In this document: positions 1-43,968 of the stretch, piece after piece
Layout of the letters: each line of letters opens with the position of its first letter
Numbering within the stretch: the first letter of the stretch is position 1
Assembly (NCBI GenBank): GCA_038231275.1
Contig: JBBRLQ010000015.1
Coordinates: 96,001-160,000 of the forward strand
Reading direction: 5' to 3'
Origin: Polyangiales bacterium
Lineage (GTDB): Bacteria > Myxococcota_A > Polyangia > Polyangiales > Polyangiaceae
DNA: 64,000 nt
The notes under the pieces: generated by a model
What the model was told of the DNA's origin: nothing
Seen by the model: the letters and a program-made list of their open reading frames with translations, nothing else
Databases searched by the model: none
Made by a program: the position numbers and the translations under genes

Positions 1-426
1 GGGCACCTTGATCGGACGCTTGTCGGTGCCGAGGTATGGGTGACCGTCGGGCGTGGTGAGCGTGCCGTCGGTCGCCACCTTCACGCCGCCGACGCGCGTG
101 TATCGCTCGCCTTGCGGCGTCTTCACCGTGAACATCCCGTCGCCGCGGATCGCGACGTCGAGAGGCCGACCGGTCTGCGTGATCTGCCCGGGCGACATGT
201 CGGGCGCGACGGCGTCGACGGCCGAATAGCGCACGTTCCGCCACTGCCCCTTCTGCACCGCGGCGTTCGCGCGCGCGGTGCTCGCGCGCGAGAGGATCTC
301 CTTGAACATCGGGCGATCGGCGCGGAAGCCCGGCGTCGACGCGTTCGCGACGTTGTTCGCGGCGGTGTCGAGCACCGCCATCTGTCCCACGGCGCCCGAG
401 AGCGCGCTCCAGATCCCGTCGCTCAT
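1..426 (-). CDS. flgF: Flagellar basal-body rod protein FlgF (runs off window edge)
   Basis: Not in ORF track; manual translation from ATG at 426: MSDGIWSALSGAVGQMAVLDTAANNVANASTPGFRAD...GQITQTGRPLDVAIRGDGMFTV...ERYTR; ATGA overlap with fliA stop. Confidence 0.85.
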   Translation of the reverse strand, partial: MSDGIWSALSGAVGQMAVLDTAANNVANASTPGFRADRPMFKEILSRASTARANAAVQKGQWRNVRYSAVDAVAPDMSPGQITQTGRPLDVAIRGDGMFTVKTPQGERYTRVGGVKVATDGTLTTPDGHPYLGTDKRPIKVP

Positions 427-1151
427 CGCTTCTTCACCTCACGGAGGGGCGGGGTCGGCTTCTTGGACTCGATGTGCGCGCGCATGCGGAGAATGGCCTC
501 GCTGTGGAGCTGGCACGCGCGCGACTCGGTCACGCCGAGGATCGCTCCGATCTCTTTCAGGCTGCACTCGTCCTGGTAGTAGAGGCCTACGACGAGGCGG
601 AGGCGCTCGGGCAGGTAGTCGACGGCGTCGGCGATGCGATCGACGAGCTCGTGCTGCGACGCGATGACGTCGGGCGCTTGGAACTCGCCCTCGCGCGGCG
701 ACGCGACGTCGACGAGCTCGAGCTGCGTGACCTCGGCAGCGGAGACCTGTGCGAGCAAGTCCTGGTAATCGTCGAGCGGCAACCCGAGCTCGCTCGCGAT
801 CTCCGGCTCCTCCGGCGCGCGGCCGAGGCGCAGCGAGAGCTCGCGGACCGCCGCGGTGATCTGGCGAGACGCGTTGCGCATCTTGCGCGACATCGGATCG
901 AGGCTGCGCAGGTAGTCGAGGATGGCGCCGCGGATACGGTGCGACGCGTAGGCCTCGATCTCGTGCTCCGGCATGTCGGGGCCGCAGCGTCGCAGGGCCT
1001 CGGCGAGGCCGACCCACCCGGCGCCGAGCAGATCGTCGAGCGCGACCTCGCGCGGGAGCTTGCGCACCATCCGCATCGCGATGCGGCGGACCATGGGCAT
1101 GTACCGCTCGTACGAGCGCTTCGTGACCGGCGTGGCGGGCTGCGCGCTCAT
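423..1151 (-). CDS. fliA: Flagellar sigma factor sigma28
   Basis: DDLLGAGWVGL, RIRGAILDYLR, LYYQDECSLKEIGAILGVTESRACQLH; start reset to ATG overlapping flhF stop. Confidence 0.95.
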   Translation of the reverse strand: MSAQPATPVTKRSYERYMPMVRRIAMRMVRKLPREVALDDLLGAGWVGLAEALRRCGPDMPEHEIEAYASHRIRGAILDYLRSLDPMSRKMRNASRQITAAVRELSLRLGRAPEEPEIASELGLPLDDYQDLLAQVSAAEVTQLELVDVASPREGEFQAPDVIASQHELVDRIADAVDYLPERLRLVVGLYYQDECSLKEIGAILGVTESRACQLHSEAILRMRAHIESKKPTPPLREVKKR

Positions 1152-2284
1152 GCCATCACCGGGAAGAGCGCCTGGAGCAGCGACTCGACGGTGGCGTCCT
1201 CGATGTCCTCGGGGACGCGCGGTCCCTTGCAGAGGTGGACGAGCGGGATGTTGCCGCGGAGCGCGGCGTGGACGGTGCCGCCGATTTGGTCGGTCTCGTC
1301 GAGCTTGGTGACGACGAGCCCCGTGGGCGTGCACGTCTCGTAGACCGAGTGGAGGCGCTCGACGTCGCGCGCGCGAATCATCGCGGGCACCGTGAGGAGC
1401 ACGTCGATCGCGCGATCCTTCGCGGAGCGCAGGCACTCGGCGAGCATGCCCATCGCGACGCGGTCGCTGGGGGCGCGGCTGGCGGTGTCGACGAGGACGA
1501 CGTCGGCGCGCTCGCACTTGGCGAGTGCGGCTGCGAACTGCTCGCGGTCGTTGGCGACCCAGAGAGGAACGCCCATGAGCTCGACGAAGCGGCGCATCTG
1601 CTCGACGGCACCGACGCGGTACGTGTCGAGCGTGATGACGGCGACCGAGCGTTCCTTCTCGAGGTGCGCGCGGGCGGCGAGCTTGGCGATCGTCGTCGTC
1701 TTGCCGACGCCCGTGGGACCGACGCAGGCGACGAGGCGGCGGCCGGGCTCGTCGACGGGACTACCCTTCACCGTGAGGCGAGAGGCGATGCGATCACGGA
1801 GCCACTTGCGGAGCTCGGCGCCGCCCTTGCCCAGCTTGCTCGCCCCTTGCGCGAGCTCGGTGGCGAGCGCGCCCTCGACTCCGACTGCGTTCAGCATCGC
1901 GACAGCGCGACCGCGCGGGCGCGTCGCGGTGGCGAGCTCCTCCAGCATGGCGCGAACGGCGCGGAGCTCGGCTTCCATCGTGGGATCGGCGCGCGGCGGC
2001 GTGGGCGTGGTCAGCGCCTTCGGGGGAAGCGGTGTCGCAAAGGCGGGGGCTCCCCCGCGGCGAAGCACCTCACGAACGAACGGGGCGGGCGTGCGGCTCG
2101 ACGACGGCGCACTGCGCTCTCCGCTCGTACCGGCGCGCACCTCGACGAACGAGGTCCCGAAGCCGCCGGCCTTCCCGTTCGTCACGTGCCGCGTCGACGC
2201 GATGACCGCCCGCGGCCCGTATGCGGCCTTCACGGCGGCGACCGCCTCTGCGACGTCTCTTCCTCGGAATGTCTCGAAGTTCAT
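1148..2284 (-). CDS. flhF: Flagellar SRP-type GTPase FlhF
   Basis: GPTGVGKTTTIAKLAA, DTYRVGAVEQ, TKLDET, GPRVPEDI. Confidence 0.95.
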   Translation of the reverse strand: MNFETFRGRDVAEAVAAVKAAYGPRAVIASTRHVTNGKAGGFGTSFVEVRAGTSGERSAPSSSRTPAPFVREVLRRGGAPAFATPLPPKALTTPTPPRADPTMEAELRAVRAMLEELATATRPRGRAVAMLNAVGVEGALATELAQGASKLGKGGAELRKWLRDRIASRLTVKGSPVDEPGRRLVACVGPTGVGKTTTIAKLAARAHLEKERSVAVITLDTYRVGAVEQMRRFVELMGVPLWVANDREQFAAALAKCERADVVLVDTASRAPSDRVAMGMLAECLRSAKDRAIDVLLTVPAMIRARDVERLHSVYETCTPTGLVVTKLDETDQIGGTVHAALRGNIPLVHLCKGPRVPEDIEDATVESLLQALFPVMA

Positions 2285-2305
2285 GTGGGCTTACCTCACT
2301 CGGAA

Positions 2306-4432
2306 TCACGCAGCGGCGGCGCGTATCGAAAGGGACTCGAAGGGCCGGATGGTCGTTTGGCTCTCGATCTCGCGGAACGAGAGGACGGAGAGGGTCGGGC
2401 AGCGGCGCTCCGCGAAGGCGCGGACGTAGCGACGCAAGTCGGGGCTCGTCACGAGGACCGGCGTGCGGCTGGCGGCGCGCATACGGGCGACCGATGCTTC
2501 GACCGCGAGGCCGAGCCGGCGCATGTCCTCCGGATCCAAAGCGCCGCCTGCGCCCGACGCGAGGTCGCGAAGCGAGCGGCGGAACATCTCCTCGATGCCC
2601 GGGTCCAGGACGAGCGCCGAGAGGATGCCGTCCGGTCCGCGGAAGTGTGCGCTGATCTGACGTGCGAGGCGTTGGCGCACCATCTCGGTGAGCTGCTCGG
2701 CGTCCTTGGTCGCGGGGGCGATCTCGATGAGGCCCTCCACGATGGTCCGCAGATCGCGGATGCTCACGCTCTCGCGCAGCAGATTGCGGACGACCTTCAG
2801 CACGTCTCCCATGGAGAGCAAGTTGGGTACCAAGTCGTCGACGAGCTTGGGCGTCGTGCGCGAGAAGACGTCGAGAAGGTGCTGGAGGTCGGTGCGGCCG
2901 ACGAGCTCGGCGGCGTGCGTGCGAACGAGCTCGCCCAGATGTGTCGCGATGATCGTCGCGTGATCGACCACCGCGTACCCGAGCGCCTCAGCCATCTCGC
3001 GATCCCGCGTCATCACCCAGCGCGCCGGCGTGCCGAAGACCGGATCGGTGCCCGCCTCGCCCGCCATCTCCGGCGCGGTGCCCGAGTCGTTCATCGCGAG
3101 CAGGCGCCCCGAGCGGAGCTGCGTGCGCGCCACTTCGGTGCCGAGCATCATGAAGCGGTACTCGGACGGCGCGAGCTCCAGGTTGTCGCGGATGCGAACG
3201 GGCGGAAGAATGACGCCCAGATCGAGGGCGTATTGACGCCTCAGCGAGCCGATGCGGTCGAGGAGGCTGCCTCCGTTGCTCCCGTCGACGGCGGAGATGA
3301 GCTCGTACCCCACCTCGAGCGCGAGCGCGTCGAGCGGCAGCGAAGACTCTATCTCCTCGGCCGGTGTCGGCGCCGCCTTGACCTCGGTCGGCTCGGCCGA
3401 CTTGTCACCGTCGACGGTCTTCATCTTCCACGCGCGCGCGCCGAGCGCGGTAGCGAGCGCGAGGAAGGGGAACGCCGGCATCCCCGGGATGAGCGCGAAG
3501 AGCGCCAAGACCCCGGCGGTCAGACCGACAGCGCGACGACTCCCCAGCATCTGCGTCGACAGCGCGCGGCCGATTTGCTCGCCGGCAGCGGAGCGCGTCA
3601 CGACGACGCCAGACGCGGTGGAGATGAGGAGTGAGGGGATCTGCGACACGAGCGCGTCGCCGACCGAGAGGATCGAGAAGGTCTCCGCCGCGTGCGCGAT
3701 GTCCATCCCCGACGCGACGCCGATGAGGAGACCGCCGACGAGGTTGACGAACGTGATGAGGAGGCCCGCGACCGCGTCGCCGTGGACGAACTTGCTGGCG
3801 CCGTCCATCGCGCCGAAGAAGTCGGCTTCGCGCTCGACGTCTTTTCTGCGCTTTTTGGCGATCTCCGCGTTGATCAGGCCCGCGTTCAGGTCCTGATCGA
3901 TCGCCATCTGCTTGCCGGGCATCGCGTCGAGGGTGAAGCGCGCGGCGACCTCGGCCACGCGTCCGGCGCCCTTCGTGATGACGACGAAGTTGATGATCAC
4001 GAGGATCATGAACACGACGAGGCCGACGACCACGTTGCCGCCGACGACGAAGCGCCCGAACGTCTCGACGACGCGACCGGCCGAGCCGTTGCCCTCCGCG
4101 CCGTGGAGGAGAATGAGGCGCGTCGTGGCGACGTTCAGGCTGAGCCGAAGCAGCGTGGCGACGAGGATGACCGTCGGGAAGACGCTGTACTCGAGCGCCT
4201 GCTCGATGAAGAGCGCGATGAGGAACACGCTCACCGCCACCGCGAGGCTGATCGCCAAGAGGCCGTCCAGGAGGAACGGCGGCAGCGGGATCACCATCAC
4301 GAGGATGATGCTCAGGAAGGCGATGGGGACCGCCAAGGATCCGACGCCCACCTTGCTGGCTGCGGTGGCGTTCGCGGTGGCGGCGGAAGTGGACACGAGG
4401 GCTTGGGCTCGTCGTTGCGATCCACGTGCCAT
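2306..4432 (-). CDS. flhA: Flagellar export gate protein FlhA
   Basis: RVAEVAARFTLDAMPGKQMAID, FFGAMDGASKFV; start could be a downstream GTG. Confidence 0.97.
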   Translation of the reverse strand: MARGSQRRAQALVSTSAATANATAASKVGVGSLAVPIAFLSIILVMVIPLPPFLLDGLLAISLAVAVSVFLIALFIEQALEYSVFPTVILVATLLRLSLNVATTRLILLHGAEGNGSAGRVVETFGRFVVGGNVVVGLVVFMILVIINFVVITKGAGRVAEVAARFTLDAMPGKQMAIDQDLNAGLINAEIAKKRRKDVEREADFFGAMDGASKFVHGDAVAGLLITFVNLVGGLLIGVASGMDIAHAAETFSILSVGDALVSQIPSLLISTASGVVVTRSAAGEQIGRALSTQMLGSRRAVGLTAGVLALFALIPGMPAFPFLALATALGARAWKMKTVDGDKSAEPTEVKAAPTPAEEIESSLPLDALALEVGYELISAVDGSNGGSLLDRIGSLRRQYALDLGVILPPVRIRDNLELAPSEYRFMMLGTEVARTQLRSGRLLAMNDSGTAPEMAGEAGTDPVFGTPARWVMTRDREMAEALGYAVVDHATIIATHLGELVRTHAAELVGRTDLQHLLDVFSRTTPKLVDDLVPNLLSMGDVLKVVRNLLRESVSIRDLRTIVEGLIEIAPATKDAEQLTEMVRQRLARQISAHFRGPDGILSALVLDPGIEEMFRRSLRDLASGAGGALDPEDMRRLGLAVEASVARMRAASRTPVLVTSPDLRRYVRAFAERRCPTLSVLSFREIESQTTIRPFESLSIRAAAA

Positions 4433-4444
4433 CGCCCGAACGGT

Positions 4445-5509
4445 TTAGCCCCAGACGACGCGATTCTTCAGGCGGTACACGAACGCCAGGACCTCGGCGA
4501 CGGCGGCGAACAGATCGGCGGGGATTTGACGCCCGACTTTGACGCGCTTGGCGATCGCGCGGGCGAGCGGCTTGTTCTCGACGACGGGGACGCCGGCGTC
4601 CTTCGCGAGTTGGCGCATGAAGAGCGCGACCTCGTCGAATCCCTTGGCGACGACGACTGGAGCGCCGTCCTGCGGGCGATAGCGGAGGGCGACGGAGATG
4701 TGGGTGGGGTTCGCGACGATGACGTCGGCGGACTTGACCATCTTGGCGAGGCCGCGTCGGAGCCGCTCACGTGCACGCGCGCGCATCTTCTGCTTGTGGC
4801 GCGGATCGCCTTCCTGCTGCTTCATCTCGTCCTTGATCTCTTGACGGCTCATCATGAGATCCTTCTCGAGCTTGACGCGATTCCAGAGGTAGTCGGCGCC
4901 GGCGAGGACCGTGAGGGCGACCGTCGCGCGAATGGCGACGTTCTCCGCGGTCTGGCCGACCGCCGACGCCGCGGACACGAGGCTCACGCTGGACATGCGC
5001 ACGAGGAGCGGAAACGCGTCGCGGACGACGCCGTAGGTCATCCACGTCACGACGCCGATGCGCCCGAGCGCGAGGAGGGTCTCGACCGTCGCGTGCTTGG
5101 GGCTGACGAGCATCTTGAGGCGGCTCATCGGATCGAGCCGATCGGCCTTGGGCATCACGAGGTCCAATCTCGGGTGAAATCCCGCCTCCGCGAAGCCGAT
5201 CGTGAGGCCGCCGAGGGTGGCGGCGATGGTCACGGGGACGAGCACGACGAGGAAGATGCTGCCCAGCCGCATCGCGACCGCCTGAACGTCGCCGTGGACG
5301 AGATCGAAGGGCTCGCCGAAGCAGCGCGTCGCGTAGTCCTTCACGTAGAGCGCCGCCATCGGCCCCATCGTCACGAGGAGCAGGATCACCGCGAGCGTCG
5401 CCGCGAGGCCCCCGGCGTCCCTCGCGCGCGCGAATTGGCCCTGTTCGCGCGCGCGCCGGCGCTTCTCCGGTGTCGGCTTCTCGGTCTTGCTCTGGTCGTC
5501 GGAGGCCAC
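4445..5509 (-). CDS. flhB: Export switch protein FlhB
   Basis: KTEKPTPEKRRRAREQGQ; NPTH autocleavage site. Confidence 0.96.
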   Translation of the reverse strand: MASDDQSKTEKPTPEKRRRAREQGQFARARDAGGLAATLAVILLLVTMGPMAALYVKDYATRCFGEPFDLVHGDVQAVAMRLGSIFLVVLVPVTIAATLGGLTIGFAEAGFHPRLDLVMPKADRLDPMSRLKMLVSPKHATVETLLALGRIGVVTWMTYGVVRDAFPLLVRMSSVSLVSAASAVGQTAENVAIRATVALTVLAGADYLWNRVKLEKDLMMSRQEIKDEMKQQEGDPRHKQKMRARARERLRRGLAKMVKSADVIVANPTHISVALRYRPQDGAPVVVAKGFDEVALFMRQLAKDAGVPVVENKPLARAIAKRVKVGRQIPADLFAAVAEVLAFVYRLKNRVVWG

Positions 5510-5512
5510 GGG

Positions 5513-6286
5513 CTACCCTCCGAGCGCCCCGACCAGCCCCTCGATGTGTCGTCCGACATGGGACAGCTGGACGATCATCTCGCGCGCCATGTCGGGCAAC
5601 GCCACGACGAGCGCGATCGTCCCCGCGACGAGGGAGAACGCGAAACCGACGCTGAAGATCTGCATCGCCGGCGCGGCGCGCGAGATGAAGGCGAGCGCCA
5701 CTTGGACCATCAGGAGCACGGCGACCAGCGGCACGCCGAGCCGGAGCCCGGCCTCGACGGTCTGCGCCGTGAGCTGGAGCATCGGCATCGCGGCACGCGG
5801 CGCGTCGACAAGCGTACCGGGCGGAAGCACGCGGTAGCTCGCGAGGAGCGACGCGACGAGGACGCGATGAAGACCGAGGAGAAATCCGAGGAGGAGCGCC
5901 ATGAGGCGGAACATGCGCGTGAGCCCCGACTCGCTCGACTGCGTGTGGGGATCGAACAAGGAAGCGGCGCCGAAGCCGATCATGGGCGACGTGAGATCTC
6001 CCGCGATCTCCACGACCGCCAGCGCGCATCGCGCGACGAAGCCCATCGCGAGGCCCACGAAGAGCTCGCTCGGCACGGCGAGGACCATGTTCCCGAGCTC
6101 CTCCACGCCGATCGGCGCCGGCGCCGCAGCGCCATGCGCGACGACCGCGAGGAGCAAGACCAACGCGACCTTTATGCGCATCGGCGCGTCCTGACCGAGC
6201 ATCGGCGCGATGATGACCAGGCCGGCGCTTCGCGCGGTCTCGAGCGCGAAGACGGCGCCCTCCCGGGGGAGAGCCTCGAGGGTCAT
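5513..6286 (-). CDS. fliR: Export protein FliR
   Basis: Hydrophobic; RAAPAMQIFSVGF; position in fliPQR-flhB. Confidence 0.93.
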   Translation of the reverse strand: MTLEALPREGAVFALETARSAGLVIIAPMLGQDAPMRIKVALVLLLAVVAHGAAAPAPIGVEELGNMVLAVPSELFVGLAMGFVARCALAVVEIAGDLTSPMIGFGAASLFDPHTQSSESGLTRMFRLMALLLGFLLGLHRVLVASLLASYRVLPPGTLVDAPRAAMPMLQLTAQTVEAGLRLGVPLVAVLLMVQVALAFISRAAPAMQIFSVGFAFSLVAGTIALVVALPDMAREMIVQLSHVGRHIEGLVGALGG

Positions 6287-6552
6287 TTGATGATTCCGGA
6301 GATCGCCCGAATGCTCTGCCGCGTGTAGTCGACGAGGCCGGTGAGGATCATCGGTCCCATGACGACCAGCGTGGCGGCCACCGCGATGAGCTTCGCGAGG
6401 TAGCTCACGCTCGCCTCGTTGACCTGCGTGGCCGTCTGGAAGACGCCGACGATGAGCCCGACGATGAGCGCGGCGAGGAGCACCGGCCCCGCCGCCTGCG
6501 CGGCGATCAGCATCGCGTTTCGGAGAAGATCGATGGCACCATCGGTCGTCAT
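6283..6552 (-). CDS. fliQ: Export protein FliQ
   Basis: GLIVGVFQTATQVNEASVSYLAKL; 89 aa from ATG overlapping fliP stop. Confidence 0.94.
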   Translation of the reverse strand: MTTDGAIDLLRNAMLIAAQAAGPVLLAALIVGLIVGVFQTATQVNEASVSYLAKLIAVAATLVVMGPMILTGLVDYTRQSIRAISGIIK

Positions 6553-7211
6553 CGGAAGCTCCGGAGGAGAGATTCGACGACGAGGCTCCATCCGTCGGCG
6601 AGCACGAACAGCAGCATTTTCACGGGCAAGCTGATGGTCGTGGGTGAGACGAACACCATGCCCATGCTCATGAGCAGCGACGCGATCGCGATGTCGACGA
6701 CGAGGAACGGCAAGAGCACCATGACGCCCATCTGGAAGGCCGTGGTGAGCTCGCTCACGACGAACGCGGGGATGGCGATGTGCATCGGCACGTCCTCGGG
6801 CTTGTTCGGGAGCGGCGTCTGCGTCGCCTCGTAGAACACCGCGAGATCGCTCTGTCGGGTCTGCCGCAACATGAACGTCTTGAGCGGCACCGTCGCGAGC
6901 TCCGCGGCTTGCAGCTCGCTGATCTGACCGTGCATGAACGGATCGACCGCCTGCGCCTGCATCTGGCGCGCGACCGGCGCCATCGTGAAGGCCGTGAGGA
7001 AGAGCGCGAGGCCGACGATGACTTGCGTGGGCGGCGTCTGCTGCGTGCCGATGCCCTGGCGCACGAAGGAGAGGACGACGATCGTGCGAACGAACGACGT
7101 CGACGTGAGGATGATCGCCGGAAGGAGCGAGAGGAGCGTGAGGACGGCGAGGATCTTGAGCGACGGCGCGAGGCCACCTTGCGCGCCGATGAGCTGGGCC
7201 CAGTCCTTCAC
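6549..7211 (-). CDS. fliP: Export protein FliP
   Basis: TSFVRTIVVLSFVRQGIGTQQTPP, PAFVVSELTTAF, LPVKMLLFVLADGW. Confidence 0.96.
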   Translation of the reverse strand: MKDWAQLIGAQGGLAPSLKILAVLTLLSLLPAIILTSTSFVRTIVVLSFVRQGIGTQQTPPTQVIVGLALFLTAFTMAPVARQMQAQAVDPFMHGQISELQAAELATVPLKTFMLRQTRQSDLAVFYEATQTPLPNKPEDVPMHIAIPAFVVSELTTAFQMGVMVLLPFLVVDIAIASLLMSMGMVFVSPTTISLPVKMLLFVLADGWSLVVESLLRSFR

Positions 7212-8415: not shown

Positions 8416-8431
8416 TCGGGGAAGCGAGAGT

Positions 8432-11182: not shown

Positions 11183-11203
11183 CTTCGCCTCCGTTACGAG
11201 CCT

Positions 11204-11902: not shown

Positions 11903-11909
11903 GGGTTCC

Positions 11910-15954: not shown

Positions 15955-15970
15955 GGCTTTCTTCTCTGTA

Positions 15971-24073: not shown

Positions 24074-24078
24074 CCCAA

Positions 24079-30030: not shown

Positions 30031-30033
30031 CGT

Positions 30034-30049: not shown

Positions 30050-30075
30050 TCGTTCCTCTCGAAGGAGACGGAACG

Positions 30076-35266: not shown

Positions 35267-36095
35267 ATGTCCATCGTCGTCCAAACCAACGTCGCGTCGC
35301 TCCAGGCACAGAAGAACCTCTCCACGAACCAAAAGGCGCTCGCGGCCAGCTTCAACAAGCTGTCCAGCGGCTACCGCATCAACAGCGCGTCCGACGACGC
35401 CGCCGGGCTCGCCATCAGCGAGTCGATGAAGATGCAGATCCGCTCGTTCGGCGTCGCCGAGCGCAACGCCAACGACGCCATCAGCATGGCGCAGACGGCG
35501 GAAGGCAGCTTGGGCGAGGTCAGCGGCATCCTCGGCCGCATGCGCGAGCTCGCGATGCAGGGCAGCAACGGCAGCCTCCAGACGAGCGACCGCGGCTACC
35601 TCGACACCGAGTTCCAGCAGATGAAGTCGGAAATTCAGCGGATCCAGGGGTCGACCACGTTCAACAACGTGAAGATCCTCCAGACCGCGGCGTCGACGCT
35701 CAACTTCCAGGTCGGCATCAACACCGGTGCGAACAACCAGATCTCGATCACGTTCGGCAACATCGACCTCGGGGGGCTCCTCACCACGACGAACAAGGTG
35801 AGCGGCACCGCCGGCAACTCGTCGTCGGCCCTCACCGCCATCGACAACGCGCTGAAGACGGTCTCCACCTCGCGAGCGACGTTCGGCGCCGCGATGAACC
35901 GCCTACAGGTCACCACCAGTAACCTGCAGACCGTCAGCACGAACATCTCGGCCGCGAACTCGCGCATTCGTTGACGTCGACGTCGCCGAGGAGACCGCCT
36001 CGATGTCCCGCGAGCAGGTCCTCGCGCAGGCGGGCGCGTCGGTGCTGGCGCAGGCGAACCAATCACCTCAATTCGCCCTAACGCTTCTCCGATAA
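35267..36095 (+). pseudogene. fliC: Flagellin 4 with +1 frameshift (or sequencing error)
   Basis: 829 nt vs 828 in paralogs; extra T at 35971-35972 gives ATT CGT TGA; the remaining 40 codons continue intact in the next frame to TAA 36093-36095. Confidence 0.9.
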
Positions 36096-36171: not shown

Positions 36172-37530
36172 ATGTCCTCCGTCACTTCCCCCACCATCAC
36201 CTTCGGCGGAGTCGGCTCCGGCATCGACGTCGAGGGGATCATCACGGGGTTGGTCAACGCCAACAAGGCGACGCTCAACTCGCTCAATTCTCGCTCCCAA
36301 GGCTTCAAAAGCGCCGCCTCGACCCTGTCGGGCGTCGGCACCACGCTGTCGAACCTGAAGGCTGCGGCGGACGCGCTGAAGGGCCTGCAGGACGTCGCCA
36401 GCTTCACCGCCACCTCGAGCAATACGGCCGCGATCGTCGCGACGGCCGCGGGCAACGCGCAGCCCGGCAACTACGCGATTCAAGTGAACAGCCTCGCGGT
36501 GGAGCAGCGCACCTACAGCGCCGCCTTTGCATCGAACAGCGATGCGCTCGGGCAGTCCGGCCCCTTGACGATCAACGTCGGCGCCTCTTCCGTGCAAATC
36601 GCCGTCAACGGCTCCGATTCGCTGGCGAGCATCGCCACCAAGATCAACGGCGCCGGTCTGCGTGTCGCCGCGTCCGTCTTCTACGACGGCGCGAAGTACC
36701 GGTTGCAGGTGCGCGGCCTTGACACAGGGGCCGCCAACGCCGTGACGTTCAACGAGACGGGCACTGCGCTCGACCTCAACGGCGACGGCTCGGTGCCCGA
36801 CGGCGGCAAGACCGTCCAGACCGCGAGCGACGCGTCGGTGACCGTCGACGGCTTCACGGTGACGCGCCCGACCAACCAGATCGTGGGGCTGATCCCTGGC
36901 GTGACCATCGCCGTGGCCCAAAAGACCACGTCGCCGGTCAGCGTCGCCATCGCCTCCGATCCGAACGCGCTGGCGGCGAAGATCAACGCCGTCGTCGGCG
37001 CCTACAACGCCGCCGTGAACCAGGTCCACAACATCGCCGGCTACGGGAGCAACAAGCCGCAGGTCGCGCAGCTCGCGGGGGACTCGGCGCTTCGGACGAT
37101 CACGAACAACCTGTCGCAGACGATGGCGCAGGCGCAGCTCGGACAAGGCACGATCGCGACGTTGTCGCAGCTCGGTCTCCAGCAGACGCGCGACGGCACG
37201 CTCCAGTTCGACAGCTCGAAGCTGGCGGCGGCGCTCACGCAGGATCCGACGAGCGTGGAGAAGCTCCTCGGGCGCGCGTCGGGGGCGACGACGGGCGGCG
37301 CGATGGCGAACCTCAGCGATCTCGTGAAGAACATCACCGACTCGGTGAGCGGCGTGCTCACGCTGCGGTCGAAGGCGCTGACCGATCAGGCGAAGAAGCT
37401 CGACGCACAGGCCGTCGCAGAGCAGACGCGCCTCGACGACTACACCAGGAAGCTCCGCACACAGTTCAGCGCGATGGATACCGCAGTCGCCGCGAATCAC
37501 GCGCTCTTGACCCAGCTCTCGAGGATCTGA
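36172..37530 (+). CDS. fliD: Filament cap FliD
   Basis: GVGSGIDVEGII, LAGDSALR, LRTQFSAMD. Confidence 0.95.
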   Translation: MSSVTSPTITFGGVGSGIDVEGIITGLVNANKATLNSLNSRSQGFKSAASTLSGVGTTLSNLKAAADALKGLQDVASFTATSSNTAAIVATAAGNAQPGNYAIQVNSLAVEQRTYSAAFASNSDALGQSGPLTINVGASSVQIAVNGSDSLASIATKINGAGLRVAASVFYDGAKYRLQVRGLDTGAANAVTFNETGTALDLNGDGSVPDGGKTVQTASDASVTVDGFTVTRPTNQIVGLIPGVTIAVAQKTTSPVSVAIASDPNALAAKINAVVGAYNAAVNQVHNIAGYGSNKPQVAQLAGDSALRTITNNLSQTMAQAQLGQGTIATLSQLGLQQTRDGTLQFDSSKLAAALTQDPTSVEKLLGRASGATTGGAMANLSDLVKNITDSVSGVLTLRSKALTDQAKKLDAQAVAEQTRLDDYTRKLRTQFSAMDTAVAANHALLTQLSRI

Positions 37531-37534
37531 TCCG

Positions 37535-37912
37535 ATGCTCAAGACCTCGCAGCGCTACCAGACCGTCCAGATCACCACCGCCAGCCCGGGGGAGCTGCTC
37601 GTCACGGTGTTCGACGGGCTCCTGCGCTTCTTGAACGTGGCGCGCATGGGCCTCGCGAACGGGAAACGCGCGCAGGCGGGCGAGGCGATCGGCAAGGCGC
37701 ACGCGATCCTGACCGAGCTGACGGTGTCGCTCGATCACCAGCACGCGCCGGCGCTCTGCGCGAACCTGACGGCGCTCTACGAGTTCAGCATGGGGCGCCT
37801 GACGCAGGCGAACCTCAAGAGCGATCCGACGAAGATCGACGAGATCATCCGAGTGCTCTCACCGATCCGCGAGGCGTTCACCACGGTGGTCCGCAACGGG
37901 GCCGGCAAGTGA
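37535..37912 (+). CDS. fliS: Flagellin chaperone FliS
   Basis: TASPGELLVTVFDG, ILTELTVSLD, NLTALYEF. Confidence 0.95.
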   Translation: MLKTSQRYQTVQITTASPGELLVTVFDGLLRFLNVARMGLANGKRAQAGEAIGKAHAILTELTVSLDHQHAPALCANLTALYEFSMGRLTQANLKSDPTKIDEIIRVLSPIREAFTTVVRNGAGK

Positions 37913-39204
37913 AGGACGCGCCCGAGTACGTCGACGCGGCGTCGCGAGGGCGTTCGGTCGCAAGAGTCGGCGGGCGGAAGGTCGAGATCGACATCGGTCG
38001 CGTTCGTTCGTATCCGGGTCTGGCGGGCGAGGCGCCGGACACACGCGCATACTACGCACTCGCCACCGAAAAGCTCTCTGGCGCGGCGCGCGTTCTGGAC
38101 GTGGGGACGGGCAGCGGCGCGGGCGCGCTCGTGTTGAAGGCGGCGTTCGCCGAGGTCGTCGCGATCGACGAGGCGCGCGAGGCTGTGGCCTTCGCGCGGG
38201 CGCACGCCGGCGGAGTCATGGTGGTTCACGCGGACGGCGCCGCGGCGCCCGCGAGCGTCACGGCGGACGCGGCGGTGCTCGTCGACGTCCTCGGACACGC
38301 GCGAGATCCCCGCGCGCTCCTTCGCGCCGTTCACGCGCGGCTTCGTCCTGGCGGTCGCGTCGTCGTGGCCGAGGCGCGCGCCTATCCGACCCAGGCGCTG
38401 CGGGCGCCGGCGCGTCGCGCGTTCTCGTCGCGCGCGCTCGCGTCGTTGCTCGAAGCGATGGGCTTCGACGTCGACGAAGAGATCGGCGGGCCCGGCCCGT
38501 TCGTGGCGTTCGTGGCGCACGCGGCGGCCGGGAACGATCCCGACGCGATCGTGCGCGCGGCCTGCAAATTCGGCGAGGGGGACGTCGACGGCGCCCTCCG
38601 CCTATTGGATGAAGCTGCCGCGACCGCGCGCGTCGCCGTTCGAATGGACGCGCTCGTCACGCTCGGGGACGTTCGAATGGCGCTCGGCGACGGCGACGGC
38701 GCGGCGAAGGCGCTCCTCGCCGCGCGCGCCGTCGATCCGAAGGATCCGCGGCCGGTGGCCGGCCTCGCGCGCTTGACGTTGGCGATGGGCGATCGCGTGG
38801 AGGCGGCGGCGCTCGCGCGAATCGCGACCTCGCTCGATCCGGCGTGCTCCGCGGCGGCGTGCGCGCTCGCGATGACCATCGGGGCGCCGGGCGACAAGGA
38901 CAACGCGGCCCTCCGCATCGCCGCGGCGCTGTCGCCCGACGACGAGGCAGTCGCGATGGCGTTCGCGGAGTCTTCGCGCGGTGCGGGCGCGCGCAAGGCT
39001 GCCGTCTTCGCCCTCGAGCGCGCGCGACGCTACGGCGATCCGCTGCCCGTCACGTTCCACGTGCTGCTCGCCGATCTCCTCCTCGAAGAATGCCGCCGCG
39101 AGGACGCCATCCTCGAAGCGCGCCTCGCCGAGGCGGTCTCCCCCGGAGCTCCCGAAGTGGCCGCGCTCTGGAGCCGCGTCCACGGCGGCGCCGCCAGGGC
39201 GTAG
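37909..39204 (+). CDS. Class I SAM methyltransferase-like domain fused to TPR-like helical repeats
   Basis: VLDVGTGSGAG motif I, LRPGGRVVV; Ala-rich helical repeats; GTGA overlap with fliS. Confidence 0.75.
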   Translation: MKDAPEYVDAASRGRSVARVGGRKVEIDIGRVRSYPGLAGEAPDTRAYYALATEKLSGAARVLDVGTGSGAGALVLKAAFAEVVAIDEAREAVAFARAHAGGVMVVHADGAAAPASVTADAAVLVDVLGHARDPRALLRAVHARLRPGGRVVVAEARAYPTQALRAPARRAFSSRALASLLEAMGFDVDEEIGGPGPFVAFVAHAAAGNDPDAIVRAACKFGEGDVDGALRLLDEAAATARVAVRMDALVTLGDVRMALGDGDGAAKALLAARAVDPKDPRPVAGLARLTLAMGDRVEAAALARIATSLDPACSAAACALAMTIGAPGDKDNAALRIAAALSPDDEAVAMAFAESSRGAGARKAAVFALERARRYGDPLPVTFHVLLADLLLEECRREDAILEARLAEAVSPGAPEVAALWSRVHGGAARA

Positions 39205-39253: not shown

Positions 39254-39596
39254 GTGCACTCCGGAGAATTCTCCGATGAAGACTTCTTCCGTGCCCTCGC
39301 CGGAAGCGGCGCGCGCGCGCTCATCGGACGTCGCGCGTTGATTTTGCTCGGCGCGCCCGTGATGACCGCCGACTACGATGCGGAGAGCGCATCGACGTGA
39401 TGGTTGCGCGCGCGGCGACCGCACCCGGCGGCGAGACCCTCGACTTCGAGACAGCGTGGGCGCGGACTACGTCGCGTGGTTTCTTCGCAGGTATCCGACG
39501 CCGCTCGCTCGCCTCGCCTACGCGCGGCGCAAGTACGAGGAAGCGATGCGCACGCAGCGCTACGCGTGCGCCGCCTTGACCCACGAGTCCAAGTAG
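39254..39596 (+). pseudogene. Fragmented nucleotidyltransferase-like gene plus small partner (possible toxin-antitoxin remnant)
   Basis: Three protein-like pieces in different frames: FFRALAGSGARALIGRRALILLGAPVMTADYD; IDVMVARA..GETLDFETAWAR; WFLRRYPTPLARLAYARR; family from recall only. Confidence 0.4.
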
Positions 39597-40177
39597 CTCC
39601 GCGGGTGCCTCTCCCGCCCGACGTGCCGGTAGCCCTCCGGCATCGCTCCGCCGAAGCCGTGGTACGTGACGACGCGCGCCCCGACCCGTGCCCGCGCGAG
39701 GAGGTGCTCCGCGCGGTTCACGTCGAGGACGAAGCGCTGGCGTGACAGCGGCACGGACTGGTCGAGCTGTTCGTCGGCGGTCCAGTTGTTCTCCTCGAAC
39801 GGGTTGAAGAAGTAGAACGCGTCGTACTCCTCCGGGTCCACGTCCTCGAGGCCGCCGTGCTCGAATCGGACACGTGTCACCCCGGCGCGCTCCGCCGCCG
39901 CGCGCGCGATGTCCACGAAGCGCGCGCGGTGCTCGAGGCCGACGATCTCCGTGCCGGTCACCGCCGCTGCGATGATGCAAAACTTCCCGATGCCCGCGCC
40001 GACGTCGAGGATGCGCGTCGTCCCACCGACGGCGAGCAGCGCGGCGGCGCGCGTCGCGACCGAGACCGGCGTCCAATACACCGCCCCGGCGGCGCGAACG
40101 TCCGCGGGGTAGAGCGCGTCGAAGTCGGCGTCGTCGACGTCGCCTCCGCTCCGCAACGTCTCCGCGATCGACGCCAT
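39560..40177 (-). CDS. Class I SAM-dependent methyltransferase
   Basis: YWTPVSVA, ILDVGAGIGKFC, YFFNPF. Confidence 0.8.
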   Translation of the reverse strand: MASIAETLRSGGDVDDADFDALYPADVRAAGAVYWTPVSVATRAAALLAVGGTTRILDVGAGIGKFCIIAAAVTGTEIVGLEHRARFVDIARAAAERAGVTRVRFEHGGLEDVDPEEYDAFYFFNPFEENNWTADEQLDQSVPLSRQRFVLDVNRAEHLLARARVGARVVTYHGFGGAMPEGYRHVGRERHPRSYLDSWVKAAHA

Positions 40178-40227
40178 CGTCACCCGCGAAGCGTAGAGCG
40201 CCTTCTTCCGTGTGTCGCGCGCGAAGC

Positions 40228-41400
40228 TTACGCCGCGCGCTTGATGCGGCGTCGGCTCGGCGTCGTGTCCACGATGTCGCGGAACAGCTTCTGTCGCGGC
40301 GTCGTCCAGAGGAGCGGGTCGCGCAGCTTGTCGAGGAACGACGCGGCGCTGTTCCCTTCGCCGAAGTGCAAGCTCGGCGCGAACCGGCGGGGCAACGACG
40401 ACAGCGCCCGCGCGATGAGCGGCGCGCTCTCGCGGACGTTCACGATCGACGGGCACTCGTAGCGCTCGTTCTGGCGCGTTCCGATGTTCACCGTCGGCAC
40501 GCCGTACACGGGCGCCTCGCGAATTCCGGCGCTCGAGTTGCCGCAGACGACCTTCGCGTCACGCATCAACGTCAGAAAATACTCGAAGCGCATCGACGGA
40601 ATCAGGCGCACCCGCGGGTGATCCTTGATGCGCTCGAGCGCGCGGAGGACGACGTCGCTGCCCGCGTCGTTGTTGGGGTAGATGGCCACCCACGAGAGGT
40701 TGCTCTTCAGGATGCCGGCGACGACGGCGTCGATGTTCTGCGGCAAATCCGCCAGCTCGGTCGTCACGGGGTGGTACGTGAAGATGCCGTATTCCGGAAA
40801 ATCGATGGCGTACTTCTTCCGGACCTCGGCGAGGCTCGGCAGATCGTCCGAGAGCATGACGTCCACGTCGGGCGAGCCGATCGCGAAGACGGCGTCGGGG
40901 TCCTCGCCCATCTGGATGAGGCGGCGGCGCGCGTCGTCGTTGGCGACGAAGTGGACCTGCGCGAGCTTGGTCACCGCGTGGCGCAAGAGCTCGTCGACGG
41001 TGCCCGAACGCTCGCCCCCCTCGAAGTGCGCGACGAGCACGTTGTTGAGCGCGCCGACGATGGCGCCGGCGAGGGCCTCGACGCGATCGCCGTGGACGAC
41101 GATGAGATCGGGTTGGTACTCGCGGACGTAGTGCCCGAGACCTTGGATGGTGGAGGCGACGATCTGATCCATCCCCGGGACGTGGCTCGCGTCCTGGTTG
41201 ATGTACGTGAAGACCTTGGAAAACCCGGCTTTCGTGATCTCCTTCACGGTCGAGCCGTAGCGCGCGAGCATGTGCATGCCGGTCGCGAAGATGGCGTAGT
41301 CGAGATCGCCGGAGACCTTCACCTTCTGGATGAGGGGCTTCAGCTTGCCGAAGTCGGCGCGCGTTCCGGTGAGGAACAGGATCTTCTTCTTGGCGCTCAT
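40228..41400 (-). CDS. neuC: Hydrolysing UDP-GlcNAc 2-epimerase
   Basis: TGTRADFGKLKP, HGDRVEAL, HFEGGERSGTVDE, GNSSAGIREAP. Confidence 0.93.
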   Translation of the reverse strand: MSAKKKILFLTGTRADFGKLKPLIQKVKVSGDLDYAIFATGMHMLARYGSTVKEITKAGFSKVFTYINQDASHVPGMDQIVASTIQGLGHYVREYQPDLIVVHGDRVEALAGAIVGALNNVLVAHFEGGERSGTVDELLRHAVTKLAQVHFVANDDARRRLIQMGEDPDAVFAIGSPDVDVMLSDDLPSLAEVRKKYAIDFPEYGIFTYHPVTTELADLPQNIDAVVAGILKSNLSWVAIYPNNDAGSDVVLRALERIKDHPRVRLIPSMRFEYFLTLMRDAKVVCGNSSAGIREAPVYGVPTVNIGTRQNERYECPSIVNVRESAPLIARALSSLPRRFAPSLHFGEGNSAASFLDKLRDPLLWTTPRQKLFRDIVDTTPSRRRIKRAA

Positions 41401-42428
41401 GCGACGTCCTTCCACGACAGCTGCGCGTTCTTCGGGAGCGCTCGCCCCGCGCGTCGTCCGAGGACCTTCTCGAAATCTGCCGCGCGGATCTCGCCGGTGC
41501 CGGGGCGCTTCACCCACACGTTGTCCATCGAGAGGGACTCGCCCTCCGCGACCTCGCGGATCGTCACGACCGAGGCGTACGCGAACGCGATCGTCGGCTG
41601 CTCCTCGGCGAGGATCTCCTTCGACGCGCCCATCGCCTGCCAGATCGCCTTGCTGCCGACGACGAGCTCGTGGAGCTCACGCGGATCGATCGAAATCGAG
41701 ACATCGGGACCGGGCCACGTCTTGTCGCTCGTGAAGTGCTTCTCGAGGATCGTCGCGCCGAGGGCGACGGCGCCGAAGCAGGTGTAGTTGCCGAGCGAGT
41801 GATCGCTGAGGCCCACGAGCGCGTCGGGGAACGCGCTCTTCAGGACCGCGAGGCCGCCGAGGCGGACCTTGTCGTACGGCGTCGGGTACATCGACGTGCA
41901 GTGCAGCAACGCGAACGGAACGCCAGCCTCGCGGAGGATCGCGACCGCAGGCGCGACGGAGGCGACGTCATTCATGCCGGTGGAGAGGATGATCGGCTTC
42001 CCGTAGCTCGCGATGTGACGGATGAGGGGGTAGTTGTTGCACTCCCCCGAGCCTATTTTGTAAGCCGAAACACCCATGCTCTCGAGGCGCACCGCGGCGG
42101 CGCGCGAGAACGGCGTGGAGAGATAGAGGAGGCCCTTTTGTTCGACGTACGCCTTGAGCTCGCGCTCCTCGGCCTCGTCGAAGGCGCAGCGATCCATGAT
42201 GCGCCAGATGCTCTCTTTCGCGTTGCCGGGGATGACCTCGTTGGGGATCATCTCGTCGTCGATGACGTGCGACTGGAACTTCGCGCACTCGCAGCCCGCC
42301 GCGGCGGCGTCGTCCACCATGCGCTTGGCCTTGGCCATGTCGCCTTCGTGGTTGATGCCGATTTCGGCGATGACGAGCGGCGGTTGGTCGGGGCCGAGAC
42401 GCCGGCCGTTCAGATCGAATGTGCGCAT
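41397..42428 (-). CDS. neuB: N-acetylneuraminate synthase
   Basis: IAEIGINHEG, VIPGNA, STPFSRAAA, KIGSGECNNYPL, LSDH, WVKRPG. Confidence 0.94.
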   Translation of the reverse strand: MRTFDLNGRRLGPDQPPLVIAEIGINHEGDMAKAKRMVDDAAAAGCECAKFQSHVIDDEMIPNEVIPGNAKESIWRIMDRCAFDEAEERELKAYVEQKGLLYLSTPFSRAAAVRLESMGVSAYKIGSGECNNYPLIRHIASYGKPIILSTGMNDVASVAPAVAILREAGVPFALLHCTSMYPTPYDKVRLGGLAVLKSAFPDALVGLSDHSLGNYTCFGAVALGATILEKHFTSDKTWPGPDVSISIDPRELHELVVGSKAIWQAMGASKEILAEEQPTIAFAYASVVTIREVAEGESLSMDNVWVKRPGTGEIRAADFEKVLGRRAGRALPKNAQLSWKDVA

Positions 42429-43135
42429 GGAATCCTCGTCGAAGGCTCGTGTCTTGCGGGCAGCAGGAAATGCTCGCGGTGCGTTCGGAACAGGTGCTCG
42501 GCGATCTGAAAATCGAGCTCGGTGTCGATGTCGCCGAGGGCGTAGAGCGGGTCGGTGACGAGCGGGTGGATGCGCTCGCCGAAGAGCTCTCCGCGATCGC
42601 GCACCATGTCGCCGCGCGACACGTAGACGACGCCGTTCTCGAAGTACGTCTTGGGCATGTCCTGCGAGCGCGTGCCGGGCGCGTAGACGGGGCGGAAGAG
42701 GCCGTCCTCCACGTGCCCCTGCTTCTCGCGGCTCGCCGTGACCGAGACGACCGAGTCCACAGGGTGCGCCATGAACGCGTCGATCGCCGAGCGCACGAGC
42801 GCGTACGGGCGGAGCGGGCAGTTGGGCTGCAAGAGGACGACGCCGAGCGGACGATAGCGGGACGACGCGAGCTCACGGAGCGTGTGCGCGACGACGCTGG
42901 CGGTGGTCGCGAGATCGGTCGACAGCTCGGCGGGGCGCATCATCACCTCGGCGCCGGTCGCGCGGGAGATCTCGGCGATCTCGGGATCGTCCGTCGACAC
43001 GACGACGCGCTCGATCTCGGGCACGGCGTGCGCGAGGGCGATCGAGTAGTGGATGAGCGGGAAGCCGCAGAAGTCTCGGATGTTCTTGCGCGGCAGGCGC
43101 TTGCTTCCGCCGCGCGCGGGGATGAGGGCGATCAT
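42410..43135 (-). CDS. neuA: Acylneuraminate cytidylyltransferase
   Basis: IPARGGSKRLPRKNI, VVSTDD, LLQPNCPLR, DIDTELDF. Confidence 0.92.
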   Translation of the reverse strand: MIALIPARGGSKRLPRKNIRDFCGFPLIHYSIALAHAVPEIERVVVSTDDPEIAEISRATGAEVMMRPAELSTDLATTASVVAHTLRELASSRYRPLGVVLLQPNCPLRPYALVRSAIDAFMAHPVDSVVSVTASREKQGHVEDGLFRPVYAPGTRSQDMPKTYFENGVVYVSRGDMVRDRGELFGERIHPLVTDPLYALGDIDTELDFQIAEHLFRTHREHFLLPARHEPSTRIPCAHSI

Positions 43136-43941
43136 GAGCGTCCCTTTTGTTGCAAGGTCCGCGCGAGGAGATCGTCGGCCTCGGCGTCGTCGGACTTGCC
43201 GAGGATCTGGAGCGCCGAGCGGGTCATGTGATCGGCGAGCGCGAGCGCGTCGAGCGCGCGGGCGGGGTCGGCGTCGGCGGGCGCGTCGGGAGCGACCGTC
43301 GGCGGCGCGTGAGGGCGGCCCGGCTGGCCGAGCGCGCCGAATCCCTGGTCGAGCGCGCGCGACGACAGCGATGCGACCGCACGCGTGTAATCCGCCTCGG
43401 AGCCCGTGTAGTACCCCTCGCGCTTGAGCGCGTGCGCGAAGCCCGCAGCGTCGCCGGCGCGCACCGCCTCGAACGCGTGCGGGAAACGCGCGCGCAGCGT
43501 CTGGAGGTAGTCGGTCGCCCCTTCGGTGGCCGAGCCGTACGCCCGGAATTTGTCCTGGATCGTGCGCTCCGTGGCGCCATAGCCCTCCTTGGTCGTGTAG
43601 GAGGTCGACAAGCCCGAGGGCCCCTGCCCTTTGATGCCGCCGAAGTTGTGGTTCATCATCGCGCGGCCGCCGCCGGTCTCGAGCGACCACTGCGCGACGA
43701 GGAGCGACAGCTGCTTGGCGGTGGGCGCGCGTCCGGTGACGGTCTCGTACGCGCTCGACAGCGCGCTCGCCGCCTCGTCACCGCCGAGCGGCGTGTGCTC
43801 CGGAGCGACGGCCCCAGGACCCCTCGCCGCCCTCGCGAGCGCCACGCCGAAGCCTCCGCCGCCGCGCTCGATCCGAGGCGGCGGCGCAGGGGCCTCCGCG
43901 TCACGGACGAGCGACGCTTGCAGCGGCTGCACGACGGGCAT
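43132..43941 (-). CDS. GH73 (FlgJ-type) peptidoglycan hydrolase domain protein
   Basis: AQWSLETG, NFGGIKG, TKE, FRAYGS, GYYT. Confidence 0.8.
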   Translation of the reverse strand: MPVVQPLQASLVRDAEAPAPPPRIERGGGGFGVALARAARGPGAVAPEHTPLGGDEAASALSSAYETVTGRAPTAKQLSLLVAQWSLETGGGRAMMNHNFGGIKGQGPSGLSTSYTTKEGYGATERTIQDKFRAYGSATEGATDYLQTLRARFPHAFEAVRAGDAAGFAHALKREGYYTGSEADYTRAVASLSSRALDQGFGALGQPGRPHAPPTVAPDAPADADPARALDALALADHMTRSALQILGKSDDAEADDLLARTLQQKGRS

Positions 43942-43952
43942 ACCCGCCGCGT

Positions 43953-43968
43953 TGCAACCCTCAGGCCG
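43953..43968 (-). promoter_or_regulatory. sigma54 promoter of the GH73-neuABC operon
   Basis: CGGCCTGAGGGTTGCA. Confidence 0.65.

Follow-up and report, generated by a model that had tools for sequence, protein, structure and literature searches.

Textbooks describe myxobacteria as surface gliders that lack flagella, and studies of how they move, prey, and develop mostly start from this description. The subject of this report is a 64-kb stretch of DNA from a Polyangiales bacterium (assembly GCA_038231275.1, contig JBBRLQ010000015.1, positions 96,001 to 160,000), here called the window, which carries a near-complete set of flagellar genes. The closest described system is that of the cultured myxobacterium Anaeromyxobacter dehalogenans 2CP-C, for which a flagellar cluster of 55.7 kb with more than 30 genes was reported (Thomas et al. 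2008, PMC2330069). In that paper, swimming was reported for strain K, the cluster was argued to be ancestral rather than transferred, and a flagellated myxobacterial ancestor was proposed. "Flagellar assembly" is listed for uncultured Myxococcota metagenome-assembled genomes (MAGs) (Murphy et al. 2021, bioRxiv 10.1101/2021.07.06.451402), and Myxococcota are treated as a motile phylum in a 2026 preprint (10.64898/2026.06.16.732483). Myxococcota variants of FliO are mentioned in a study of that protein, and flagella receive only a passing mention in work on 46 Myxococcota bins from activated sludge.

An earlier note on this DNA had set out from the premise that cultured myxobacteria are described as non-flagellated gliders, and that premise finds no support in view of the published cluster and swimming of Anaeromyxobacter. 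Flagella are already known at the level of the phylum and are annotated in databases at the level of the family, but no publication on flagella in Polyangia or Polyangiaceae was found in the literature searched, which excluded supplementary tables. Promising papers turned out to mention flagella only in their reference lists or in connection with other taxa. Eleven of the best 120 FlhA matches described below are annotated in NCBI as [quoted passage not shown]. The premise of novelty is overstated, since an FlhA annotation is already present in many MAGs labelled Polyangiaceae; flagella of Polyangia are visible in database annotation and under-discussed in print.

The window and A. dehalogenans 2CP-C share a single large flagellar cluster in a high-GC myxobacterium, and the latter is a direct precedent within the phylum. 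Anaeromyxobacter belongs to the class Myxococcia, whereas the window host is labelled in a different class. A chemotaxis block is embedded between motAB and the fli genes in Anaeromyxobacter, whereas che genes are absent from the window. The published Anaeromyxobacter annotation contains no fliK, flgA, flgJ, fliJ, or flgN; of these, the profiles recognized FliK, FlgA, and a rod-binding FlgJ in the window, and FliJ and FlgN weakly. The likeness is drawn from gene content and from the published description.

Other well-known flagellar systems resemble the locus in part. Campylobacter and Helicobacter possess sigma54/sigma28 flagellar hierarchies with glycosylated flagellins, and Geobacter-type deltaproteobacteria use sigma54 flagellar master regulators. 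The window shares with these systems a sigma54 activator encoded within the cluster together with FliA and FlgM, multiple flagellins, -24/-12-like sites before structural operons, and sigma28-like sites before most flagellins. With the Campylobacter/Helicobacter type it further shares a Maf/PseD-like protein and a sugar pathway of NeuB, NeuC, and CMP-transferase enzymes. The window differs from all of these in that the activator has no receiver domain, the -10 element reads CCGTTC and not CCGATA, FlhF has no adjacent FlhG, and the sugar genes are matched best as NeuC/NeuB and not as Pse. Bacillus is known for its fla operon order and for the FliW-CsrA partner switch. One long operon with the flgB-to-fliA order, FlbD, and a csrA gene beside flgK/flgL are shared with the Bacillus type, and fliW occurs in relatives of the window. 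Unlike Bacillus, the window encodes a diderm flagellum with P and L rings and has no che genes in the operon, and fliW is separated from csrA.

Coding frames in the 64-kb window, which has a GC content of ~64-73% throughout, were chosen using the GC content at third codon positions (GC3), and Pfam and NCBIfam profile searches were then made. About 44 flagellar genes and six genes for flagellin glycosylation or the cell wall were identified at positions 1-43,941. Matches as strong as that of FlhA (E 1e-252, 840 bits) are not attributable to chance. As judged by the profile matches, the genes encode a standard external diderm flagellum. The export apparatus comprises FlhAB, FliOPQR, and the FliHIJ ATPase complex, with all five export-gate proteins (FlhA, FlhB, FliP, FliQ, and FliR) above the Pfam cutoffs. 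FliF, FliG (three domains), and FliN are clear, and FliM is weaker. The axial set consists of the rod proteins FlgB, FlgC, FlgF, and FlgG with FliE, the hook proteins FlgE, FlgD, and FliK, the junction proteins FlgK and FlgL, three intact flagellins, and the cap FliD, accompanied by FliS. The P- and L-ring proteins FlgI and FlgH with the chaperone FlgA, the stator proteins MotA and MotB, FliL, and FlbD were all detected.

The genes are arranged in three blocks. A minus-strand operon runs from flgB (18,827) in the order flgB-flgC-fliE-fliF-fliG-fliH-fliI-fliJ-fliK-flgD-flgE-fliL-fliM-fliN-fliO-fliP-fliQ-fliR-flhB-flhA-flhF-fliA-flgF and leaves the window at position 1; the flgF orthologue in the related locus L001 is full length (250 amino acids (aa)). 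The divergent plus strand carries the sigma54 activator, flbD, motA, motB, two secreted proteins with no assigned role, flgG, flgA, flgH, flgI, an FlgJ-like rod-binding open reading frame (ORF), flgM, a candidate flgN, flgK, flgL, csrA, the Maf/PseD-like gene, four flagellin genes, fliD, fliS, and a methyltransferase-TPR gene. A second operon on the minus strand, at 39.5-43.9 kb, contains genes for two enzymes resembling NeuB and NeuC, a CMP-sugar transferase, a glucosaminidase, and a methyltransferase. A Maf-type transferase and NeuB-, NeuC-, and CMP-transferase-type enzymes are therefore all encoded near the flagellin genes. Coordinates are collected in Table 1.

The sequence motifs examined are intact. 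FlhB contains the autocleavage site NPTH (residue 267), FliG contains EHPQ and MFxF, FliI contains Walker A and B motifs, and FlhF contains a P-loop. The activator contains Walker A, GAFTGA, and ESELFGH, and Asp22 of MotB precedes the membrane helix. We take these motifs to have their customary roles, including that of the MotB Asp as the proton-binding residue. Start/stop overlaps of 4 bp are possible in up to 19 adjacent gene pairs (10 ATGA, 7 GTGA, and 2 TTGA), depending on the choice of start codon. The near-complete gene set and the intact motifs described in the earlier note were thus recovered, but the many overlaps that it had assigned to ATGA are divided among three sequences, and only three of its four flagellins are intact. 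In comparison with the close relative L001, a ratio of nonsynonymous to synonymous substitution rates (dN/dS) of 0.146 was obtained for 14 genes and 4,145 codons (dS 0.49; per-gene values 0.083-0.309). The genes compared include those of the hook, the switch, and FliA. These values indicate that the flagellar system is maintained by purifying selection.

The host was placed using FlhA and two flank proteins. A scan of GTDB genomes with FlhA returned 10 loci, nine of which are in MAGs labelled as Myxococcota or Deltaproteobacteria (65-93% identity; record titles Myxococcales, Sorangium sp., Polyangiaceae, Myxococcota, delta proteobacterium, and Deltaproteobacteria bacterium); the tenth is from Acetobacter (40%). 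The order fliI...flgD-flgE-fliL-M-N-O-P-Q-R-flhB-flhA-flhF-fliA is retained in all nine related loci, as far as each reaches. A search of 5.8 billion proteins with FlhA gave 8,000 matches, of which the best 120 (clusters at the 90% level) were considered. Organism labels are attached to 13 of these (11 Polyangiaceae, 1 Myxococcales, and 1 Deltaproteobacteria), on contigs of up to 553 kb, and one unlabelled match lies on a contig of 1.37 Mb. Among the best 120 matches of the flank protein MutH (46,952-47,635), the seven labels are six Labilithrix sp. and one Myxococcales bacterium (61-63% identity). Six of the best 120 matches of a flank beta-helix protein (56,918-58,336) are labelled, as Polyangiaceae, Polyangiales, Myxococcaceae (two), Anaeromyxobacter, and Deltaproteobacteria. 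After NCBI lineages were checked, all 26 labelled matches among these best 360 are Myxococcota or "Deltaproteobacteria". A host within Myxococcota, in a clade labelled Polyangiaceae, Sorangium, or Myxococcales, is supported by these labels, in line with the Myxococcota/Polyangiales host named in the earlier note.

MutH of the window is full length and exceeds the NCBIfam equivalog cutoff (258.6 bits versus 243). This family is expected mainly in Gammaproteobacteria. Its use as a gammaproteobacterial marker of the flank was ruled out by the Labilithrix and Myxococcales labels of its relatives, and MutH-type mismatch repair seems to be resident in this branch of Polyangia. In the Protein Atlas, the nearest MutH clusters are from Pseudomonadota, and a flank protein without a family gave scores below 0.9 to Myxococcota clusters; both results were treated as leads only.

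The cluster and its flank are alike in composition. The tetranucleotide correlation between them is 0.985 (within-region controls, 0.992 and 0.979), the correlation of relative synonymous codon usage is 0.985, and GC3 is 0.904 versus 0.906. No integrase, transposase, or genuine tRNA was found at the borders of the cluster. In an exhaustive search of 1.84 billion representatives, the FlhA clade forms one 50% cluster, and the next matches are at most 52% identical. The clade has a support of 100 in FastTree (157 rows) and in an IQ-TREE quick analysis (38 rows), contains two deep subclades, and in IQ-TREE has a Shimodaira-Hasegawa-like approximate likelihood ratio (SH-aLRT) of 100 and a stem length of 0.62. 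Its sister is the pair P0122/P0125, and the next group (SH-aLRT 85, a modest value) contains the FlhA of a "Myxococcota bacterium", the nearest labelled relative outside the clade; proteobacterial-type FlhAs form a separate group. Organisms are recorded for 9 of the 30 nearest outgroup representatives: Nitrospira, Nitrospinota, Wallbacteria, a Parvibaculum MAG, "Myxococcota bacterium", Dadabacteria, Acidithiobacillus, Escherichia coli, and Rickettsiales. The flagellar system looks long-resident rather than recently acquired, as the earlier note had proposed. Long residence fits the FlhA clade, the gene order, and the composition, which do not by themselves prove vertical descent.

The window thus probably represents chromosomal DNA of an uncultured Myxococcota bacterium from a large environmental clade, and it carries an old and selected flagellar regulon resident in that lineage. 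Vertical inheritance from a flagellated myxobacterial ancestor is the most likely origin. Because the system is selected and old in the lineage, the organisms probably swim at least part of the time, and a capacity for swimming is a reasonable inference from the genes.

Several observations weigh against this reading. FliM (8432-9307) is short (~290 aa), and its middle domain gives 12 bits in Pfam; the protein was recognized by FliMN_C, a weak match to TIGR01397 (80 bits, cutoff 219.6), its canonical operon position, and its conservation in five clade members. The FliM orthologues compared were those of the window and of four related loci (L001:4908-5783, L004:4330-5175, L007:2229-3089, and L008:5233-6060). 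In all five, no more than ~12-22 residues precede the conserved core, and a peptide resembling the CheY-docking motif LSQxEID is absent. No che, flhG, or rpoN gene was found in the window or in the 20 kb around flhA of the relatives, and no MinD-like flhG lies between flhF and fliA in the window or in nine related loci, in all of which flhF is directly followed by fliA. Flagellin 4 has a one-base insertion relative to flagellin 3 that produces a premature stop at 35,974. FliJ and FlgN are weakly supported (E 0.045 and 0.015), and motAB and the filament genes lie outside the dN/dS comparison. Because genes for rRNA, ribosomal proteins, and genuine tRNA are absent from the window, placement of the host rests on the record titles of submitters. 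The connection with FlhAs of other Myxococcota depends on one labelled sequence, and the FlhA comparison was made without Anaeromyxobacter flagellar proteins, so that vertical descent within the phylum is not demonstrated by it. The promoter tests described below were post hoc. The term "complete" holds for the structural set, because three flagellins are intact, FliM is divergent, and flhG, fliW, and che genes are absent from the window.

The oddities of FliM, the break in flagellin 4, and the lack of nearby che or flhG genes would also agree with genes retained without a swimming organelle, either as a relic in early decay or as an apparatus turned to export or adhesion and lacking chemotactic control. 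Cultured relatives are, moreover, described as gliders (PMC13104615). This explanation is nevertheless unlikely. The dN/dS values are low in all 14 genes tested. Intact genes remain for three flagellins, the cap, both rings, the junction proteins, and a stator that has kept its critical Asp. The 40 codons of flagellin 4 beyond the frameshift continue undamaged in the next frame, with only synonymous differences from flagellin 3, so the break is either very recent or an assembly error; the insertion site is also a possible site of slippage or phase variation. The peculiarity of FliM is no sign of decay, because it is conserved across the clade.

Recent acquisition of the cluster, as a genomic island, by a myxobacterium from a flagellated donor phylum is considerably less probable than a resident origin and was judged to be very unlikely. 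It would agree with the confinement of all the genes to a single 44-kb block, one end of which is a sugar-modification operon, and with the several phyla among the nearest named neighbours of the FlhA clade in the trees. However, the composition and codon usage of the cluster equal those of the flank, the borders bear no mobility genes, and FlhA representatives outside the clade are at most 52% identical. Nine MAG species with FlhA identities down to 65% have the gene order in common, and the FlhA clade is deeply divided and sits on a long stem.

The beta-helix orthologue P0415 (81% identity) is recorded on a 119,095-bp NCBI contig, and the flagellar contig of L001 is also 119,095 bp in length. 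The same linkage of cluster and flank is suggested for this independent MAG because the two lengths agree, which is the sole basis of the suggestion; the MutH and beta-helix proteins of the window are themselves recorded on one 213,206-bp contig. A chimeric or mis-binned contig, with the flagellar half from another organism than the flank, or mislabelling of the whole clade, is the least probable explanation and was given scarcely any weight: the relatives are all MAGs with labels supplied by their submitters and the flank encodes a MutH of a mainly gammaproteobacterial family with Pseudomonadota as its nearest Atlas clusters, but the labelled MutH relatives are Labilithrix and Myxococcales, composition is uniform, the 119,095-bp contigs agree, and labelled FlhA matches on contigs of 466-553 kb make mis-binning of single genes no issue.

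Regulatory elements were sought upstream of the resident flagellar genes, among which the sigma54 activator, FliA, and FlgM are all encoded. Exact copies of a sigma28-like motif, TCAAG-N15-CCGTTC, precede flagellins 2, 3, and 4, ending 77-80 nucleotides (nt) before the ATG, and a one-mismatch copy precedes flgM. The spacing agrees with the sigma28 consensus, in which the -10 element is CCGATA. The motif is also exact directly after fliA in L003 and L007. In post hoc tests with consensus motifs on this GC-rich sequence, 46 sigma28-like motifs with up to two mismatches were counted in the window versus 18.1 ± 4.5 in shuffled sequences (0 of 100 reached 46). In the same manner, 61 sigma54-like -24/-12 sites were counted versus 46 ± 6.6 expected (1 of 100 shuffles reached 61); in upstream regions on the correct strand there are 8 in 2,020 nt versus 0.96 expected, before flgB, the activator, flbD, motB, flgG, flgM, csrA, and fliD. 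These matches are no more than suggestive of sigma54/sigma28 elements. Flagellin 1, the most divergent copy, has no sigma28-like motif upstream; a two-mismatch sigma54-like site lies ~210 nt upstream of its start, inside the 3' end of maf (window 32035-32260), and the end of maf overlaps the flagellin 1 start by 62 nt. Flagellin 1 may be under a different sigma factor than the other flagellins.

A regulatory scheme can be proposed from these elements. The sigma54-dependent activator, a candidate master regulator, probably drives the structural operons from -24/-12 promoters. On completion of the hook-basal body, FlgM would be exported and FliA freed. The freed FliA would then transcribe flagellins 2-4 and flgM from the TCAAG-N15-CCGTTC promoters. 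Translation of flagellin is probably adjusted by CsrA together with a FliW whose gene lies just outside the window. The fliW gene is absent within the window; it is beside flgF in L001, just past the equivalent of the left edge of the window, and after fliA in L004 and L005. The Maf-type transferase probably adds a nonulosonic sugar resembling sialic acid to flagellin, with the NeuC/NeuB/CMP-transferase operon supplying the sugar.

Other genes may be connected with this regulon. The histidine kinase gene at 45122-45907 is possibly a member of it, as judged from an upstream sigma28-like motif; in L008, a kinase that is 29% identical (L008:14891-15694) lies right after flgF, behind TAAAG-N14-CCGTTC (region L008:14820-15694). 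An RTX-repeat protein (window 47703-49757) has a signal-peptide- or lipoprotein-like N-terminus if the ATG at 47808 is its start. A sigma28-like motif with one mismatch ends 79 nt before this ATG, with the spacing seen for flagellins 2-4, and a second RTX-repeat gene follows at 49961-51583. Past the equivalent of the left window edge, L001 (L001:14795-18493) encodes FliW, a hybrid PAS histidine kinase that includes a receiver domain, and another sigma54 activator, which shares 61% identity with that of the window. HDOD-domain proteins follow the flagellar operon at L004:14552-16609, L005:5877-8546, and L008:16272-18212 (a receiver-GGDEF-HDOD fusion in L008), which hints at motility control of the cyclic-di-GMP type.

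FlgJ is split in the window: a 114-aa rod-binding protein follows flgI, and a separate glucosaminidase, encoded 16 kb away, heads the nonulosonic-acid sugar operon. The two proteins encoded at 22373-23239, between motB and flgG, could be motor or envelope accessories. An 84-nt tRNA-Glu(CTC) was predicted by ARAGORN at 38386-38469; it lies inside the methyltransferase-TPR ORF, has no Rfam support, and was taken as a false positive. An Rfam scan of the window gave no matches.

Table 1. Features of the 64-kb window, with window coordinates, strand, and the evidence for each assignment
Feature	Coordinates	Strand	Evidence and remarks
flgF, proximal rod	1-426	-	N-terminal 142 aa, cut by left window edge; NCBIfam TIGR02490 E 4e-35
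fliA, sigma28	423-1151	-	NCBIfam FliA/WhiG 204 bits (cutoff 189.6); start overlaps flhF stop (ATGA)
flhF, signal recognition particle (SRP)-type GTPase	1148-2284	-	TIGR03499 202 bits (cutoff 174); P-loop GPTGVGKT
Export gate flhA, flhB, fliR, fliQ, fliP, fliO	2306-8056	-	FHIPEP E 1e-252, Bac_export_2 E 2e-97, Bac_export_1, Bac_export_3, FliP, FliO
fliN, fliM (291 aa, divergent), fliL	8053-9879	-	FliMN_C, FliL; FliM domain 12 bits
flgE (hook), flgD (hook cap; likely start 11902), fliK (11910-12515)	9884-12515	-	FlgE_D2, FlgD, Flg_hook 31.4 bits (cutoff 29.8)
fliJ	12512-12958	-	Weak, E 0.045; profile positions 3-121 of 123
fliI, ATPase	12955-14268	-	ATP-synt_ab E 4e-88, T3SS_ATPase_C; Walker A GAGVGKST
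fliH	14265-14987	-	Pfam FliH
fliG, fliF (MS ring), fliE, flgC, flgB	14974-18827	-	FliG N/M/C domains, YscJ_FliF, FliE, rod domains; FlgB TIGR01396 67.6 bits (cutoff 59)
sigma54-dependent activator, no receiver domain	19127-20320	+	Sigma54_activat E 1e-72, HTH_8, GAFTGA
flbD, motA, motB (stator)	20357-22376	+	FlbD, MotA_ExbB, MotB_plug, OmpA; MotB Asp22
170-aa signal-peptide protein, between motB and flgG	from 22373	+	OMP_b-brl E 6e-4, below cutoff; start overlaps motB stop
Small acidic Asp/Ala-rich protein, lipoprotein-like signal	~22887-23239	+	Sequence and GC3 phase
flgG, flgA (24070-24825), flgH (L ring), flgI (P ring), FlgJ-like rod-binding ORF (26660-27004)	23288-27004	+	FlgH E 1e-49, FlgI E 2e-123, ChapFlgA 26.2 bits (cutoff 23.8), Rod-binding 32.3 bits (cutoff 25.1)
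flgM (anti-sigma28), candidate flgN (27417-27773), flgK, flgL, csrA (30076-30345)	27111-30345	+	FlgM, FlgK_D1, Flagellin_N, CsrA; FlgN weak, E 0.015
Maf/PseD-like flagellin modification protein, MptE-like domain	30342-32321	+	PF01973 E 1e-31; NCBIfam PseD domain E 8e-21, far below model cutoff
Three intact 275-aa flagellins	32260-33087, 33183-34010, 34204-35031	+	Flagellin_N, Flagellin_C, alignment
Flagellin 4, frameshifted	35267-36095	+	One-base insertion near 35968-35971; stop at 35974; 40 C-terminal codons in next frame to 36095
fliD (filament cap), fliS (flagellin chaperone)	36172-37912	+	FliD_N, FliD_C, FliS
Methyltransferase-TPR protein	37909-39204	+	Methyltransf_23, TPR_19; start overlaps fliS stop
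Methyltransferase	39560-40183	-	In NeuB/NeuC operon
NeuC-like hydrolysing 2-epimerase	40228-41400	-	Epimerase_2; TIGR03568 393 bits (cutoff 236)
NeuB-like synthase	41397-42428	-	NeuB 359 bits, below cutoff 400
CMP-sugar transferase	42410-43135	-	CTP_transf_3; PseF-like E 1e-42 but below cutoff
Glucosaminidase	43132-43941	-	Pfam Glucosaminidase
261-aa histidine kinase, no sensor domain	45122-45907	+	Exact sigma28-like motif 45075-45100, ending 21 nt before ATG, then strong Shine-Dalgarno

A broader proposal is advanced more tentatively, at somewhat less than an even chance: a large, widespread, and as yet undescribed Polyangiales-type clade may consist of swimmers that have retained an ancestral flagellum lost several times in Sorangium- and Myxococcus-type relatives, with a motor that is unusually wired and controlled by means other than classical chemotaxis. 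The suggestion of a non-classical control logic is made because FliM is without the CheY-docking peptide, FlhF is without a neighbouring FlhG, and the sigma28 regulon appears to reach a small orphan histidine kinase and an RTX-repeat surface protein.

The machine itself is not of a new kind. Its parts are standard and have a precedent in Anaeromyxobacter, and the value of the finding is ecological and evolutionary rather than mechanistic. The finding lends support to the idea, put forward in 2008, that the myxobacterial ancestor was flagellated and that flagella were then lost repeatedly, and it suggests liquid or motility-based enrichment as a route to culturing these organisms. Some members of a "gliding" group probably swim, which is unusual but precedented, and the ecology of a sizeable environmental branch of the phylum probably includes swimming.

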